In this document: piece by piece, positions 36,154 to 41,300 of the stretch
How positions within the stretch are numbered: position 1 is the stretch's first letter
Layout of the letters: each line of letters begins with the position of its first letter
Assembly (NCBI GenBank): GCA_029260935.1
Contig: JAJDCJ010000005.1
Span: 16,073 to 80,072, forward strand
Source of the DNA: Patescibacteria group bacterium
Lineage (GTDB): Bacteria; Patescibacteriota; Minisyncoccia; Phycocordibacterales; Phycocordibacteraceae
Reading direction: 5' to 3'
DNA length: 64,000 nucleotides
Program-made: the position numbers and the translations under genes
Notes under the pieces: model-generated
What the model saw: only the letters and a program-made list of their open reading frames with translations
Told to the model about the DNA's origin: nothing
Databases searched by the model: none

Positions 36154-36286
36154 GGCCCGGACACTTACTTTGCCATCATAACGTTAGCATAGGATGTCGG
36201 TTGGTAAGGAAAGTAAAAAATGCTCGGAGTTCGCACGTTGAGACCTGTTGCTTAAAAGACAACAATGGCAAAGTAAGTGTCCGGGC
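36154..36286. repeat. 133-bp element bounded by 22-bp perfect inverted repeats, abutting/overlapping the 5' end of tRNA-Gly(TCC)
   Basis: gcccggacacttactttgccat (36154-36175) pairs with atggcaaagtaagtgtccgggc (36265-36286). Confidence 0.4.
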
Positions 36287-36355
36287 GGGATTAGTTTATC
36301 GGTAAAATAACAGTTTTCCAAACTGTGGTGAAGGGTTCGACTCCCTTATCCCGCA
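36285..36355 (+). tRNA. tRNA-Gly (anticodon TCC)
   Basis: Acceptor GCGGGAT/ATCCCGC, anticodon stem ACAGT/ACTGT with loop TTTCCAA, and T-arm AAGGG-TTCGACT-CCCTT. Confidence 0.85.
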
Positions 36356-37869
36356 CAGATTGAAACTTCTTCTGAATTGAGGACGGAAGACCGCCGCGCC
36401 GCAGGCGCGGCGGAAAGCAAATGGGCGCGCCGCTGCGCGACGAATTGGAATGGCGATGGTACCGCGAAGCGGGCGGTTTTGTCACGAACCGCATGGTTCG
36501 TTCCGATTTTTTGGACGAAGGAGGCAATTTCAGGGAAATTGTCGGATGAGGACAAAAAATCAGCTTGTTTCGTATCCAAAACCCAACTCCGCAGGGGTTC
36601 GACCCACTGGTTCTCTCCGCGTTCGCACTCTTTCTGTTTTGCTTTCAAAGTGGCGAGAGAGCGCATGGTTTTATCTTTTCTCTGGAGATAACTTTTCTTT
36701 GGTATATCCCCATCAAGATAGGTTGAGATAAGTTTCTCCATGCGCTCCTCGTCCGCTTTGATTTTGAGAGAAAGAGTGTGAACATCATTTTGCGACACTG
36801 ATTGTTCTTCCTGTTGCCATTCGTCAATTTTCGCTAACATCCAGTCGGTATAGCGGTCGCAAAGTGATAGTGTTTGAAGCCGTTCCTTGAGTTGAAAGAC
36901 GAGAATGTCCTCGCGCAAATATCCCTGTGTACACTTGCCTCTCTTTTTCGTACAGCGATAGTACCGATAAATTCCTCCATTTCCTTTGGCGAATTGTGCG
37001 GTGAACATAGAGCCACATTCCTCACAACGAAAAAGAGAGCGGAACGGAAAATCGTGATTCTTCCTGGTATTGCGAGGACATTCTCGTACTTTCAAAACTT
37101 TTTGTACGGCTTCAAACAATTGCGGAGAAACCAGTGGTTCAAAGTTTCCATCAAACCATTCACCACGATGTTTGACGAAGCCCAAGTATGCGCGATTAGT
37201 GAGAAGCCGTTTGATGGAAACTTTGGCAAGTGGCGTTCCGTTTCGAGATACCACGCCCAAATCCGCCAAAAACTGTCCCAGCGAGGTGTATGTATGCGTC
37301 CCTTTGGCGTATTCCTCAAATGCAATACGAACGATACGCGCGTTCGTGGGGTGCGGCTCGATGTTTCTGGTACGCGCATTATTCACATAGCCAAAGGGTG
37401 CGAGGTTCAACCACTCGCCACGGCGCAGTTTTTGGCGGATGCCCCGATTCACATTCTGCACCAGATTGTCTGAATAATATTTCGATTGTCCGAACGCCAC
37501 TTGCAACATAAAGAGTCCCTGCGGCGTGGGTTCAAACCAAAAGGTCGGAAAGCGCAAAGACATGATTTTCTGTGTGTCTACGGCGTATATGATACGTCCA
37601 CCATCAACGCTGTTGCGGGCGAGCCGATCAGGATGCCACGCCAAGATACCGATATTCCCTAATTCCTCGACCTTTCCCATCATTTCACCGAACACGGCTC
37701 GCCCCGGTGTCTTTGCGCTTTTCGACTCTTGAAATTCCTCAAGAATTTCAAGATTTTCTTTACGTGCAAACTCGCGTAATTCAAACAACTGCGCTTCAAT
37801 CGACATAATCTGTTTGTCGTCTTCTTCAGTCGATTTACGCGCGTATAGAAAATACTTTTGGTTTGCCAT
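36346..37869 (-). CDS. Large serine recombinase (resolvase/invertase catalytic domain + recombinase domain + zinc ribbon)
   Basis: N-terminal YARKSTEEDDKQ..SIEAQ catalytic serine motif, a central recombinase domain and CEECG..(16)..CTKKRGKC zinc-ribbon motifs. The start is taken at MANQKYFLYARKST. The C-terminal 44 codons lie inside R1a, and the stop codon overlaps the tRNA 3' end. Confidence 0.8.
   Translation of the reverse strand: MANQKYFLYARKSTEEDDKQIMSIEAQLFELREFARKENLEILEEFQESKSAKTPGRAVFGEMMGKVEELGNIGILAWHPDRLARNSVDGGRIIYAVDTQKIMSLRFPTFWFEPTPQGLFMLQVAFGQSKYYSDNLVQNVNRGIRQKLRRGEWLNLAPFGYVNNARTRNIEPHPTNARIVRIAFEEYAKGTHTYTSLGQFLADLGVVSRNGTPLAKVSIKRLLTNRAYLGFVKHRGEWFDGNFEPLVSPQLFEAVQKVLKVRECPRNTRKNHDFPFRSLFRCEECGSMFTAQFAKGNGGIYRYYRCTKKRGKCTQGYLREDILVFQLKERLQTLSLCDRYTDWMLAKIDEWQQEEQSVSQNDVHTLSLKIKADEERMEKLISTYLDGDIPKKSYLQRKDKTMRSLATLKAKQKECERGENQWVEPLRSWVLDTKQADFLSSSDNFPEIASFVQKIGTNHAVRDKTARFAVPSPFQFVAQRRAHLLSAAPAARRSSVLNSEEVSICAG
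36353..36483. repeat. R1a, left copy of a 131-bp perfect inverted repeat flanking the serine recombinase gene
   Basis: Identical to the reverse complement of 37918-38048. It starts at the last 4 nt of the tRNA (gcac) and is GC-rich with an internal hairpin ccgccgcgc/gcgcggcgg. Confidence 0.8.
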
Positions 37870-37917
37870 ACTTGCTTCAATAATAACAGAGAAGCAAGTA
37901 TGCGAATACGAAACAAG

Positions 37918-38048
37918 GACAAAACCGCCCGCTTCGCGGTACCATCGCCATTCCAATTCGTCGCGCAGCGGCGCGCCCATTTGCTTTCCGCCGCGCCTGC
38001 GGCGCGGCGGTCTTCCGTCCTCAATTCAGAAGAAGTTTCAATCTGTGC
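37918..38048. repeat. R1b, right (inverted) copy of the 131-bp repeat
   Basis: Reverse complement of 36353-36483 and abutting R2a. Confidence 0.8.
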
Positions 38049-38284
38049 TGACATTCTAACCTTTGCGCGAACCTTTTACGAGAACACTTAGCCGCCTCCG
38101 CTTCGCTCCGGCGGAACCACGCAGCGCCATTCTTTTTGCTTTTCCTTTTTAAAAAACACGCCGACAAAAAATTAGGAAAGCGGAAAAAAGAATGGCGCTG
38201 CTCGGTGGCGCTCCAGATGCGGCGTTGTGGCGGGGGCAACGCCGCATCTTTCGCCCAAAAGGCAAATGCAGTCTTAGGAAAAAT
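38044..38284. repeat. R2a, left copy of a 241-bp inverted repeat flanking the ABC transporter operon
   Basis: About 98% identical (about 5 mismatches) to the reverse complement of 40672-40912. It is internally palindromic (gcagcgccattctttt.../...aaaagaatggcgctgc and gatgcggcgttg/caacgccgcatc) and ends exactly at the stop codon of the substrate-binding-protein gene. Confidence 0.8.
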
Positions 38285-39351
38285 CAAATGTCTAAGAAAG
38301 TCGGAAGTGGACTTTTTGACTCGATGATTCCATTTGATAAGATATAATCTTGAACTGCCATGCCAATTCGTAGATACGAAAACTTTCCGTCTTCGTCAAT
38401 AAGTTCTTGTTCTGCCTCTTTGACCGAACGTGGCAAATATTCCTGTGTCAAAGCGGTTTTATAACCCTCAAGGGTATATTTTGTTGAAGCATTTTCGTCA
38501 AGATATTCAAGACTGTATCTTGCATTGTTGTCGATATCAGAATACACATAGTCAACAGAATCAAACCACATTTTCATAAACGCCTTGATCTCTGATTTCT
38601 TACTCTCTACGACACTCTTTCGTGCGACAATTCCCGTAATATCAGCAAACCCCGCATCTTCCATCGAGAAAACTGAGCGTCCACCTCGATTAAGTGTTTC
38701 AGTGAGTTGGGTCAAGCCAACAGATGCCGCATCAAGACTACCTGCTTCAGCCGCAAGAAATCCTTGATCAAGAGGGGTATCTACAATTTTTAGAGAATTG
38801 GCTGGCACATTGTTTGATGCTGCAAGAGAATAAAGCATCATGTCGAACATTGAACTTTTTTGTGCCCCAATTCTTTTAGATAAAAATTGTGCTACTTTTT
38901 CGCGGTTTTGTAGACCATTTGCGTCTAGTGTTGGTACTTCGTTTTCTCCCCGAAAAGTTACAAAAGCACCTCCCTTAAACACATATGCGGGGTACACATA
39001 TACCAATGGGTCGTTTGTTCCAGCATTTATGTTGTCCGCTTTTGTGAGGTATTCGATATAGCTGGCAAAACCAATATCAATACCTCCTCCAACAACTGCT
39101 TCCATGATGTTTTCCCAAGGTAGAGTAACGAGTTCAATATCGGTCTTATATTTTTCCTCAAGCCCCAAAGGTTCAATAGCAGCTGTCATTGCTAAATCTT
39201 GATAGGGAGATATACCAACTCGCAAAGAACCGTTCGACGACTGATTATTCAAATAAAAGAAAATTCCAACGACAATGACAGCTGCGGCGATAATGAGAAT
39301 CCATTTATACACTCCTACTTTCGCCAGAAAACTATTTTGCTCCATATCCAT
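38284..39351 (-). CDS. ABC transporter substrate-binding protein, NitT/TauT (NMT1/SsuA-like) family
   Basis: N-terminal TM/signal anchor followed by a periplasmic-binding fold. It shares an operon with a NitT/TauT permease and ATPase. Confidence 0.7.
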   Translation of the reverse strand: MDMEQNSFLAKVGVYKWILIIAAAVIVVGIFFYLNNQSSNGSLRVGISPYQDLAMTAAIEPLGLEEKYKTDIELVTLPWENIMEAVVGGGIDIGFASYIEYLTKADNINAGTNDPLVYVYPAYVFKGGAFVTFRGENEVPTLDANGLQNREKVAQFLSKRIGAQKSSMFDMMLYSLAASNNVPANSLKIVDTPLDQGFLAAEAGSLDAASVGLTQLTETLNRGGRSVFSMEDAGFADITGIVARKSVVESKKSEIKAFMKMWFDSVDYVYSDIDNNARYSLEYLDENASTKYTLEGYKTALTQEYLPRSVKEAEQELIDEDGKFSYLRIGMAVQDYILSNGIIESKSPLPTFLDI

Positions 39352-40654: not shown

Positions 40655-40671
40655 AGTTTGAATAATACTAG

Positions 40672-40912
40672 ATTTTTCCTAAGACTGCATTTGCCTTTTG
40701 GGCGAAAGACGCGGCGTTGCCCCCGCCACAACGCCGCATCTGGAGCGCCACCGAGCAGCGCCATTCTTTTTTCCGCTTTCCTCATTTTTTGTCGGCGGGT
40801 TTTTGAAAAAGGAAAAGCAAAAAGAATGGCGCTGCGAGGTTCCGCCGGAGCGAAGCGGAGGCGGCTAAGTGTTCTCGTAAAAGGTTCGCGCAAAGGTTAG
40901 AATGTCAGCACA
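40672..40912. repeat. R2b, right (inverted) copy of the 241-bp repeat
   Basis: Reverse complement of R2a. It begins 17 nt upstream of the ATPase start codon, and its outer end is ...gaatgtcagcac. Confidence 0.8.
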
Positions 40913-40967
40913 AAAACAATGAGCCGGGCGTGATAACGCTCGGCGATTTGTTTTGTAGCGAGGAGAG

Positions 40968-41111
40968 GGGAATCGAAAGGCGGAGCCGGTATACAAGGCG
41001 AGGAGGGACGACGAGTGCTTGTCGGCGAGCCAGGGTCGTGAGCCGTAGAAAATTAAGGAATGAAATGACTATAATTTTCACGGACTCCTGACCGACTCCC
41101 TTATCCCGCAC
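40968..41111 (+). repeat. Copy B of the conserved ~150-nt element, ending in a 19-nt copy of the tRNA-Gly(TCC) 3' end
   Basis: Aligns to 32056-32207 and is preceded by hairpin 40921-40948. The terminal cgactcccttatcccgcac is identical to the tRNA 3' end. Confidence 0.6.
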
Positions 41112-41175
41112 CTGAAACGAAGAACATAGCGATGTAACCATTGATATGTTTGAGAGAAGGTGTGAGACAAGCTTT

Positions 41176-41198
41176 GCTTATCCCGCACACGAAACGAA
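41176..41198 (+). repeat. Third partial copy of the att-like motif cttatcccgcacNNgaaacgaag
   Basis: cttatcccgcacacgaaacgaag compared with 41100-41122 cttatcccgcacctgaaacgaag. Confidence 0.5.
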
Positions 41199-41300
41199 GT
41201 TCTTGCATCGTCTCCATAAGCATCCTTGCCTCACACTAAACAAAATCCCCCGCGTACGCGGGGGATTCTACCTAAAACCTAGTGACCTAGATCCTAGTCT

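Follow-up and report, generated by a model that had tools for sequence, protein, structure and literature searches.

What has been inserted at the tRNA-Gly(TCC) gene's 3′ end in a patescibacterial genome, by which kind of enzyme, and where does the inserted DNA end? The locus lies in contig JAJDCJ010000005.1 of a Patescibacteria group bacterium (assembly GCA_029260935.1), from which a stretch of 64,000 nt (positions 16,073 to 80,072, forward strand) was analyzed; this stretch is called the window here, and all coordinates count from its first nucleotide. A first reading of the letters alone (the sequence-only reading) had described a composite 4.8-kb insertion made of a serine recombinase module and an ABC transporter operon, bounded by a 19-bp direct repeat of the tRNA end. 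The insertion, its recombinase, and its cargo within inverted-repeat modules all stand, but the extent does not: the limits are set by a short core and lie at 36357 and 40911. The best explanation, taken as one whole with its boundaries, attachment (att) site logic, and mechanism, is probably that this DNA is a site-specific integrative element, or mini genomic island, of a large family in Patescibacteria, also known as the candidate phyla radiation (CPR).

The gene beside the tRNA encodes, by its domain content, a large serine recombinase (LSR). Its open reading frame (ORF; 36346-37980, minus strand) matches the Resolvase (PF00239, 1.7e-19), Recombinase (PF07508, 1e-12), and Zn_ribbon_recom (PF13408, 1.3e-9) families, all above cut-offs, and its stop codon (36346-36348) lies within tRNA-Gly(TCC), as the sequence-only reading had noticed. 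The true start is likely M38 (ATG at 37867-37869), picked by eye from the translation, which gives a protein of 507 aa. This methionine opens the usual serine-recombinase N-terminus MANQKYFLYARKST, the N-terminus YARKSTEEDDKQIMSIEAQ holds the expected Ser motif, and top homologs cover ∼100% of the 507-aa form. A look-up of the window's 544-aa ORF gave no record. The protein is far removed from known enzymes: solved structures match it at E values of 1e-10 to 1e-5, and similarity to SPbeta SprA, A118 Int, CcrA/B/C, and XisF is only remote. CcrB and CcrA are its best NCBIfam matches, and the scores for the Ccr families (83, 70, and 45 bits) fall far short of the respective cut-offs (900, 700, and 900). 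A coiled coil is hinted at solely by a charged region at 380-450 of the translation. The last ∼44 codons are the tRNA-side arm of an inverted repeat read on the minus strand; a codon-phase test of this arm gave a modest signal only (information content of 0.88 vs 1.22 and 1.01), and these residues may be either functional protein or translated DNA/RNA structure. A domain search found no tyrosine recombinase in the segment, and its sole recombinase is of the serine type.

The cargo had been read as a three-gene NitT/TauT ABC operon, and three ABC-importer genes are indeed present, on the same strand as the LSR gene, with weak NCBIfam matches to SsuA, SsuC, and TauC. Since the cargo start codon (40654) is just 16 nt from the far repeat arm, the cargo promoter should lie in or beyond that arm.

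Two inverted repeats organize the element (Table 1). The arms of the first (X arms, 131 nt, 100% complementary) bracket the LSR gene, and those of the second (Y and Y′ arms, 242 nt, 98%) bracket the cargo operon. The sequence-only reading had recognized two modules bracketed by inverted repeats but took them to be nested; they abut instead, with 5 nt in common (TGTGC, 38044-38048). One short core recurs at every junction: the left junction reads CCC-GCAC-AGATTG from the tRNA into X at 36353, the middle one reads CAATCT-GTGC-TGACATTC at 38045, with the core inverted, and the right one reads GAATGTCA-GCAC-AAAAAC at 40908. On both sides, the element is bounded by a core of 4-5 nt, GCAC(A), common to the 3′ end of tRNA-Gly(TCC), and because all three junctions carry it the inserted DNA is measured as 4,555 bp (36357-40911). 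Furthermore, the reverse complement of 37918-38285 is identical to 40671-40911 joined to 36357-36483 at 363 of 368 nt (5 mismatches). Because joining the outer ends would create the sequence of the X/Y junction in the opposite orientation, this junction is read as a second attP.

The target gene has survived the event. The placement of tRNA-Gly(TCC) given by the sequence-only reading is upheld by ARAGORN and by Rfam (36285-36355), and its Rfam score of 63.3 bits equals that of copies at empty sites, showing that the tRNA is intact despite the insertion. Its T-loop motif GGTTCG (36334-36339) lies at -19 to -14 relative to the core. Rfam and ARAGORN gave no match in the X arms, the Y arms, or the module downstream of the element; the arm sequences contain conserved hairpins with some compensatory changes, and a promoter/terminator scan was uninformative (12 promoter-like sites vs 6.8 expected).

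Table 1. Coordinates of the element, its target, and its immediate surroundings in the window
Feature	Position	Strand	Description	Basis
tRNA-Gly(TCC)	36285-36356	+	Integration target; putative left half of attB	ARAGORN
LSR gene	36346-37869	-	507 aa from likely start; longest ORF to 37980	Pfam
Core copy 1, GCAC	36353-36356	+	Final 4 nt of the tRNA by ARAGORN, final 3 by Rfam; left junction tRNA-core-X
X arm at tRNA (first inverted repeat, left)	36353-36483	+	Core, A.A..GAAACTTC motif, GC-rich hairpin 36391-36413
X arm 5′ of LSR gene (first inverted repeat, right)	37918-38048	-	100% complementary to 36353-36483
Internal inverted intact copy of putative attP (Y′-GCAC-X)	37918-38285	-	Core GTGC 38045-38048
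Y arm at recombinase module (second inverted repeat, left)	38044-38285	+	Outer-end T-arm mimic GGTTCGCGCAAAGG 38060-38073 (minus strand)
Cargo: three-gene NitT/TauT-type ABC importer	38284-40654	-		Pfam NMT1_2, BPD_transp_1, ABC_tran
Binding protein (NMT1/SsuA-like)	38284-39351	-
Permease	39315-40046	-
ATPase	40043-40654	-
Y′ arm, far end (second inverted repeat, right)	40671-40912	+	T-arm mimic GGTTCGCGCAAAGG 40883-40896, GGTTCG at -25 to -20 from core
Core copy 3, GCAC	40908-40911	+	Right junction Y′-core-flank
Native tRNA downstream region, outside element	40912-41111	+	Terminator-like hairpin 40923-40944 and T run, then ∼150-nt structured module
Partial third copy of tRNA end	41177-41199	+	CTTATCCCGCAC plus ACGAAACGAAG; outside element

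The 19-bp repeat itself is real. The 19-mer CGACTCCCTTATCCCGCAC occurs exactly twice in the window, at 36338-36356 and, as had been reported, at 41093-41111, with 0 copies expected by chance. The accompanying 12-mer is also present, although one base from its reported position (41177-41188 instead of 41176-41187), in a stretch (41177-41199) that repeats 41100-41122 with a 77-nt period (repeat family of 23 nt, 91%). The sequence-only reading took the two 19-mers for attL and attR of a composite element spanning 36357-41111 that had duplicated the tRNA end, and the exactness of the repeat speaks for this, as does its start in the T-loop, where tyrosine integrases classically cross over; a 25-nt repeat of the tRNA end also lies ∼185 nt past the Y′ arm in one related locus (L030). 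Nevertheless, the locus has neither of the classical features of a tRNA island, a tyrosine integrase beside the tRNA or a displaced direct repeat of the tRNA 3′ end, and the same repeat occurs at the same distance where there is no recombinase. A copy of the tRNA 3′ end, matching at 14 or more of 16 nt, lies 94-237 nt past tRNA-Gly(TCC) in 18 of 59 LSR-free loci that have this tRNA and extend far enough downstream, and the window's copy, once the element is removed in silico, starts 184 nt downstream, collinear with such loci. Three of them (L105, L138, and L136) are collinear with the tRNA plus 40913-41111, the final TGACCGACTCCCTTATCCCGCAC included. Within the window, tRNA-Gly(GCC) at 31940-32011 is followed by a paralog of 40912-41111 (∼93% over ∼140 nt, with homology starting exactly at GCAC). 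Most of 21 relatives that carry a cargo module lack any longer repeat of the tRNA end (at least 12 nt) nearby.

Judged by these comparisons, the sequence from 40912 on is the native region downstream of the tRNA and not part of the element. The 19-mer at 41093-41111 is the final part of a small, pre-existing structured module of ∼150 nt downstream of tRNA-Gly, and it is therefore not an att site of the element; an insertion bounded by the two 19-mers is very improbable. The sequence-only reading had itself allowed for a conserved tRNA-downstream motif unrelated to integration, which is what the repeat turns out to be, while the insertion stands on other grounds.

Modules of this kind follow tRNA-Gly genes in many CPR genomes (window 40912-41111 and 32012-∼32215; loci L084-L163). 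They consist of a terminator hairpin and then ∼110-160 nt, with two or three variable hairpins between ends that copy the tRNA: its 5′ acceptor strand (GTGCGGGATA) reappears at the 5′ end, its T-stem and 3′ acceptor strand (GACTCCCTTATCCCGCAC) at the 3′ end. RNAalifold applied to nine copies gave a closing helix and a hairpin with eight compensatory pairs, and the module is present in tandem in L084, L101, L104, L111, and L127. It may represent either a minihelix RNA resembling tRNA or a miniature integrative remnant.

Empty sites, which the sequence-only reading had proposed to look for, are the usual state: an LSR homolog occurs in only 2 of 80 metagenome loci that share the tRNA 3′ end (L142 and L162), and two further loci start with X-like sequence. 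To find an empty site in the same strain, the neighboring HU gene product was looked up as an exact protein; the only record returned was a 1,391-nt contig, held in SRR15505513, that matches window 41124-42514 exactly and is uninformative here. In the two occupied loci, the LSR genes (L142 94-1708, 45% identical; L162 434-1982, 27%) converge on tRNA-Gly(TCC) and end within ∼20-40 nt of its 3′ end; the one in L142 is bracketed by a 106-nt inverted repeat that takes in the last 9 nt of the tRNA, and the one in L162 has no such repeat. As an LSR just 45% identical has such a repeat at the same tRNA-Gly(TCC), the architecture is old.

A comparison of the recombinase's neighbors in other genomes, also proposed by the sequence-only reading, bears out the arrangement. 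The LSR has 5,705 homologs (E ≤ 1e-10); identity to it is 67-86% in the top 120 clusters, and all named sources among these are Patescibacteria. Scanning one genome per species gave 578 relatives, of which the loci of 80 were examined, making 81 loci with the window. X arms of at least 100 nt are present in 64 of the 81 (median length 131 nt, median arm-to-arm identity 99.3%, 31 pairs perfect). Compared between elements, the arms are only 76-84% alike or give no blastn match, and because they are near-identical within elements and divergent between them, the two arms of one element must evolve in concert. A convergent tRNA gene lies directly at the 3′ end of the LSR gene in 67 of the 81 loci, with 19 anticodon types among tRNAs for Ser, Glu, Arg, Leu, Gly, Ala, Lys, and Val. 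The last 4 nt of the adjoining tRNA (GCAC, CCGC, TCAC, CCAC, or GGAC) recur as the outermost 4 nt of both X arms, such that the core covaries with tRNA type across the family. The recombinases also cluster by core and tRNA type, with a mean identity of 75% within a core class versus 68% between classes and the same core in the nearest neighbor in 43 of 51 cases; the window's recombinase falls with those of elements at tRNA-Arg(tcg) and tRNA-Leu(caa), whose core is likewise GCAC. The second module is found in the 21 relatives mentioned above as an inverted repeat of 144-375 nt that abuts the 5′ X arm and brackets 1.1-6.1 kb, and in all of these and the window the far Y′ end carries the same 4-8-nt core as the tRNA end, followed by unrelated flank.

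Chimeric assembly of metagenomes can yield perfect long inverted repeats, and many related contigs do break at them. Even so, the chance that the repeats are an artifact of this kind is next to nil, given that the architecture recurs in >60 independent assemblies from many studies and that CP060229.1 and OY970382.1 are titled as chromosomes. Other homolog contigs often end ∼50, 73, 103, 123-128, or 136 nt into Y, which is ∼k-1 of common assembler k-mers, and they would break inside Y because it is repeated. Homolog contigs of 4.6-4.75 kb were considered as possible circles and rejected, as they are ordinary chromosomal fragments. A scan of IMG/VR gave no relatives, leaving a phage origin without support. 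The sequence-only reading had recognized no described family in this architecture, and a literature search likewise found no description of the element family or its architecture.

The ends of the elements suggest how the target might be recognized. Profiled over 51 elements, the sequence directly before the core is tcgAAatagGTTCGcGCaaaGGttA.tAttTCa in the Y end and GgGTTCGA.TCcc..... in the tRNA, so that GGTTCG stands at -25 to -20 in the Y end versus -19 to -14 in the tRNA, an outward shift of 6 bp. The start of X has a conserved motif of its own (A.A..GAAACTTC), and the chromosomal flank beyond the core is not conserved. In characterized serine integrases, the motif bound by the zinc-ribbon domain sits 5 bp nearer the center in attB than in attP (PMC3783163). 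The shift of GGTTCG resembles this offset, with the limits that it is 6 bp here against 5 bp in the rule and that just one half-site per att site shows the motif.

The proposed mechanism would begin with Y′-core-X as attP and the tRNA 3′ end plus its flank as attB. The LSR would exchange strands inside the 4-nt core, and because of this position just 4-8 nt would be duplicated, as expected for a serine integrase. The enzyme would read the universal T-loop motif GGTTCG, while the core and neighboring bases would set the choice of tRNA. Because the flank (B′) is not conserved, tRNA-core-X may itself be a possible target, and insertion between the tRNA and a resident element would then build tandem arrays. 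Excision via the two outer cores would give a circle in which two inverted, attP-bearing repeats part the recombinase and cargo segments, and the junction of the empty site would read CCCTTATCCCGCAC directly followed by AAAAACAATGAGCC. Gene conversion would keep the arms identical, and the arms would permit occasional flipping of modules; given the geometry of the junctions, neighboring ones allow inversion, and the outermost pair alone allows excision.

Several points weigh against this account. Integration, excision, and mobility are read from sequence comparison, and the circular junction and the internal junction would be the same by sequence and are thus not distinguishable. The P′ half-site (the X start) is unlike P and B′ is not conserved, and for this reason the att sites lack the dyad symmetry usual for LSRs. 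The conserved Y end could instead be the promoter of the recombinase gene (in a TCGAAA-N17-TAnTAT reading), or it could double as one. The 1.4-kb unique part of the recombinase module contains no candidate gene for a recombination directionality factor, which leaves excision unaccounted for. Recombinase and tRNA genes are co-directional in 1 locus against 67 convergent ones, where equal use of the two attP copies predicts half. Finally, the proposal does not explain the role of the internal inverted attP and the long arms.

These arms also admit another reading, in which the LSR is chiefly an inversion or phase-variation enzyme that flips the recombinase between X arms and the cargo between Y arms, thereby switching expression relative to outside promoters such as that of the tRNA, with integration rare and ancient. 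Long near-perfect inverted repeats with inverted cores permit inversion and not excision of a single module, the cargo promoter would have to sit in or beyond the Y′ arm, and one flipped isomer of the recombinase module is known (L065), in which the tRNA is co-directional with the recombinase gene. The cargo is also of types common in phase-variable loci and differs in coding strand relative to the recombinase from element to element. It includes type I and type II restriction-modification systems, AAA_15/AAA_21 ATPases, methyltransferases, a GTP cyclohydrolase II fusion, an aromatic amino-acid lyase, dehydrogenases, surface proteins (beta-helix, PKD, and peptidoglycan-binding domains), transporters, and many proteins without a Pfam match. 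However, orientation is nearly fixed, and at 67 convergent loci to 1 flipped, neither free flipping nor equal use of the two attP copies is likely unless one form is lost to selection. The same cargo has not been seen in both orientations, and inversion alone would not account for the tandem arrays, the empty sites, or the occurrence at 19 tRNA types with covarying cores. Inversion as the main function is therefore unlikely, yet it is compatible with integration at tRNA ends as an added activity of the same element.

Support for mobility comes from the differing cargo, the flipped isomer in L065, the 45%-identical LSR at the same tRNA-Gly(TCC), and arrays that show the modules in other combinations. 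Three LSR elements stand in series at tRNA-Ser in L030, and further tandem arrays occur in L165-L167. The closest LSR (86% identical) is found in five contigs from five Joint Genome Institute (JGI) samples as part of a chain at tRNA-Leu(taa), in the order tRNA, mini-X, Y cassettes, X-rec-X′, Y cassette, mini-X or a second full LSR module, and so on; all junctions read in this chain are Y end-core-X or its reverse complement. Mini-X denotes a derivative of the LSR module of ∼100 nt without the recombinase gene, made of the X start, a GC hairpin, and the X′ end (L165 1-127 and 9463-9589; L166 ∼6881-7026; compare L167 399-2267), with a right half 96% identical to the arm end of the full module, and a deletion between the palindromic GC hairpins of the arms may have produced it. 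At one position, mini-X and a full second LSR module alternate in contigs that are otherwise 99.96% identical, a presence/absence polymorphism between samples. In the L165-L168 arrays, every cargo cassette starts with a gene of 67-69 aa for an XRE-type helix-turn-helix protein beside one Y arm (for example, L165 2493-2696, 6009-6215, and 8831-9037); the cargo of the window has no such gene.

Alternation of X and Y modules in arrays could also mean that two transposon-like elements lie side by side, an autonomous 1.7-kb recombinase element with 131-nt terminal inverted repeats and a non-autonomous cargo element with 242-nt ones. Many homolog contigs measure 1.7-2.0 kb, as an X module by itself would, and the recombinase-deleted mini-X of ∼100 nt is reminiscent of miniature inverted-repeat elements. 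Yet assembly breaks ∼k-1 nt inside the Y repeat account for the short contigs, the module flanks are inverted (GCAC ... GTGC) and are not direct target-site duplications, and insertion is strictly site-specific. In addition, serine-type excision of a single module needs a palindromic dinucleotide, which is absent from TCAC, CCAC, and GGAC. A pair of independent transposons is accordingly a quite improbable account, less so than one bounded by the 19-mers but more so than inversion. Two related schemes were tried and rejected: with GCAC and CCGC cores, a palindromic dinucleotide would in theory let the recombinase module excise by itself, which fails with the other three cores, and fusion of two circles with palindromic sites predicts X′-core-Y, with a core orientation opposite to that found.

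Two further loci are irregular. In L052 (1-1716), a recombinase gene has tRNA-Glu 3′ ends on both sides and non-identical arms, and in L049 (1-5445), a recombinase module has Y arms on both sides, with the far cargo arm incomplete. These may be products of rearrangement or mis-assemblies, and no conclusion rests on them.

Taken further, the integrative-element explanation could be extended to a phylum-wide CPR gene-cassette system at tRNA 3′ ends. An LSR clade would read the T-arm and a 4-nt core, retarget among tRNAs, and move units of one recombinase (or mini-X) module and one cargo module, each with an intact inverted attP inside, so that the modules flip, stack, and are exchanged, forming an integron-like platform built on serine recombination. 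This extension is offered tentatively, as a possibility that falls somewhat short of being the likelier outcome.

Among known systems, serine integrases of temperate phages (A118/LI, Bxb1, phiC31, and SPbeta SprA) share the Resolvase, Recombinase, and zinc-ribbon domains; a very short att identity (4-8 nt here) and one motif placed further out in the element's site than in the host site (by 6 bp here vs 5 bp for LI integrase) may be further points in common. Their sequence kinship is distant, however, and the element has no phage genes, targets a tRNA 3′ end, has att half-sites that are not dyad-symmetric, carries its gene between 131-nt repeats, and keeps a second, inverted attP inside. The closest analogs in behavior are staphylococcal cassette chromosome (SCC) elements such as SCCmec, which are cargo islands driven by LSRs (CcrA/B/C) at the 3′ end of a conserved gene, with terminal inverted repeats and tandem composites. 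Like them, the element has inverted repeats at its ends, leaves the conserved housekeeping gene at whose 3′ end it lies functional, carries varied cargo, forms tandem composites, and has no evident separate directionality factor. Scores (83 vs 900 bits for CcrB and 70 vs 700 for CcrA) and target place it outside SCC: it has one recombinase and not a pair, a tRNA target and not rlmH, and a 10-fold smaller size, and long internal inverted repeats with an inverted attP are not SCC features.

Other systems are alike in single respects. The small serine recombinase of phiRSM phages integrates at the extreme 3′ end of tRNA-Ser, and the element is similar in using a serine recombinase at a tRNA 3′ end, but the phiRSM enzyme is resolvase-like, without Recombinase or zinc-ribbon domains, and belongs to a filamentous phage with no modules bracketed by inverted repeats. 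Tycheposons of Prochlorococcus are likewise small tRNA-linked elements with nutrient-acquisition and defense cargo that gather in islands; of 937, 27 encode an LSR and 910 use tyrosine recombinases with partial-tRNA direct repeats, many carry replication genes, and the architecture of the window element has not been described for them. The yeast 2-micron plasmid replicates and does not integrate, and its FLP is a tyrosine recombinase; it is an architectural analog only, in that the putative circle would also have two long site-bearing inverted repeats parting two segments, one of which encodes the recombinase, with the difference that the element has no replication gene. Hin/Gin/Pin invertases are small enzymes with a C-terminal helix-turn-helix, inverted sites of ∼26 bp, and both orientations within one population, as opposed to an LSR of 507 aa, repeats of 131 and 242 nt, and 67 convergent loci to 1 flipped. 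Insertion sequences and transposons share the presence of inverted repeats, but here the flanking cores are inverted instead of direct and insertion is confined to tRNA 3′ ends. Integrons have the tyrosine recombinase IntI, an attI site, and cassettes that end in attC hairpins; a tyrosine recombinase is absent here, and the likeness is limited to arrays of promoter-poor cassettes with palindromic junctions.

The element is thus probably a serine-integrase integrative element, unusual in its systematic tRNA targeting and in keeping a putative attP copy, inverted, inside long inverted repeats. According to a 2020 survey (PMC7192596), large serine integrases had not been reported to use t(m)RNA genes, and candidates numbered 14 of 297. 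Here a whole LSR clade targets tRNA genes, with at least 578 relatives in species-representative genomes and ∼5,700 proteins, and the T-arm motif with its 6-bp offset, combined with the covarying 4-nt core, offers a recognition logic that is directly testable. An inverted attP kept inside an integrated element, between long homogenized repeats, does not fit current models of serine-integrase elements. If the proposal is true, these elements would be a main route for exchange of accessory genes (transporters, restriction-modification systems, and surface proteins) in CPR bacteria, which have tiny genomes and few known mobile elements. For organisms in which genetic manipulation is difficult, the family would also supply a range of natural integrases that land at tRNA genes.

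The surroundings of the target contain some further features. The tRNA cluster of the window (31454-36356) comprises Arg(tcg), Gly(gcc), Pro(tgg), and Gly(tcc), an order kept in several LSR-free relatives (L096, L120, and L124). Upstream of the target lie a small ORF (35940-36068) of 39-nt tandem repeats encoding MENGDMPVDGTMPTEGGDM... and then a GC hairpin with a T run (∼36078-36103). A perfect 22-nt inverted repeat (36155-36176 and 36265-36286) stands just 5′ of tRNA-Gly(TCC), with its right arm reaching 2 nt into the tRNA, and could be a leader structure or a processing site. On the other side of the element, the HU gene (41301-41573) adjoins a gene for a 726-aa protein (41668-43848, minus strand) with two DUF1538 stretches and a cytidylate-kinase-like P-loop domain, and four relatives (L093, L115, L124, and L146) also have an HU gene, ∼0.8-2.3 kb downstream of their tRNA-Gly(TCC).

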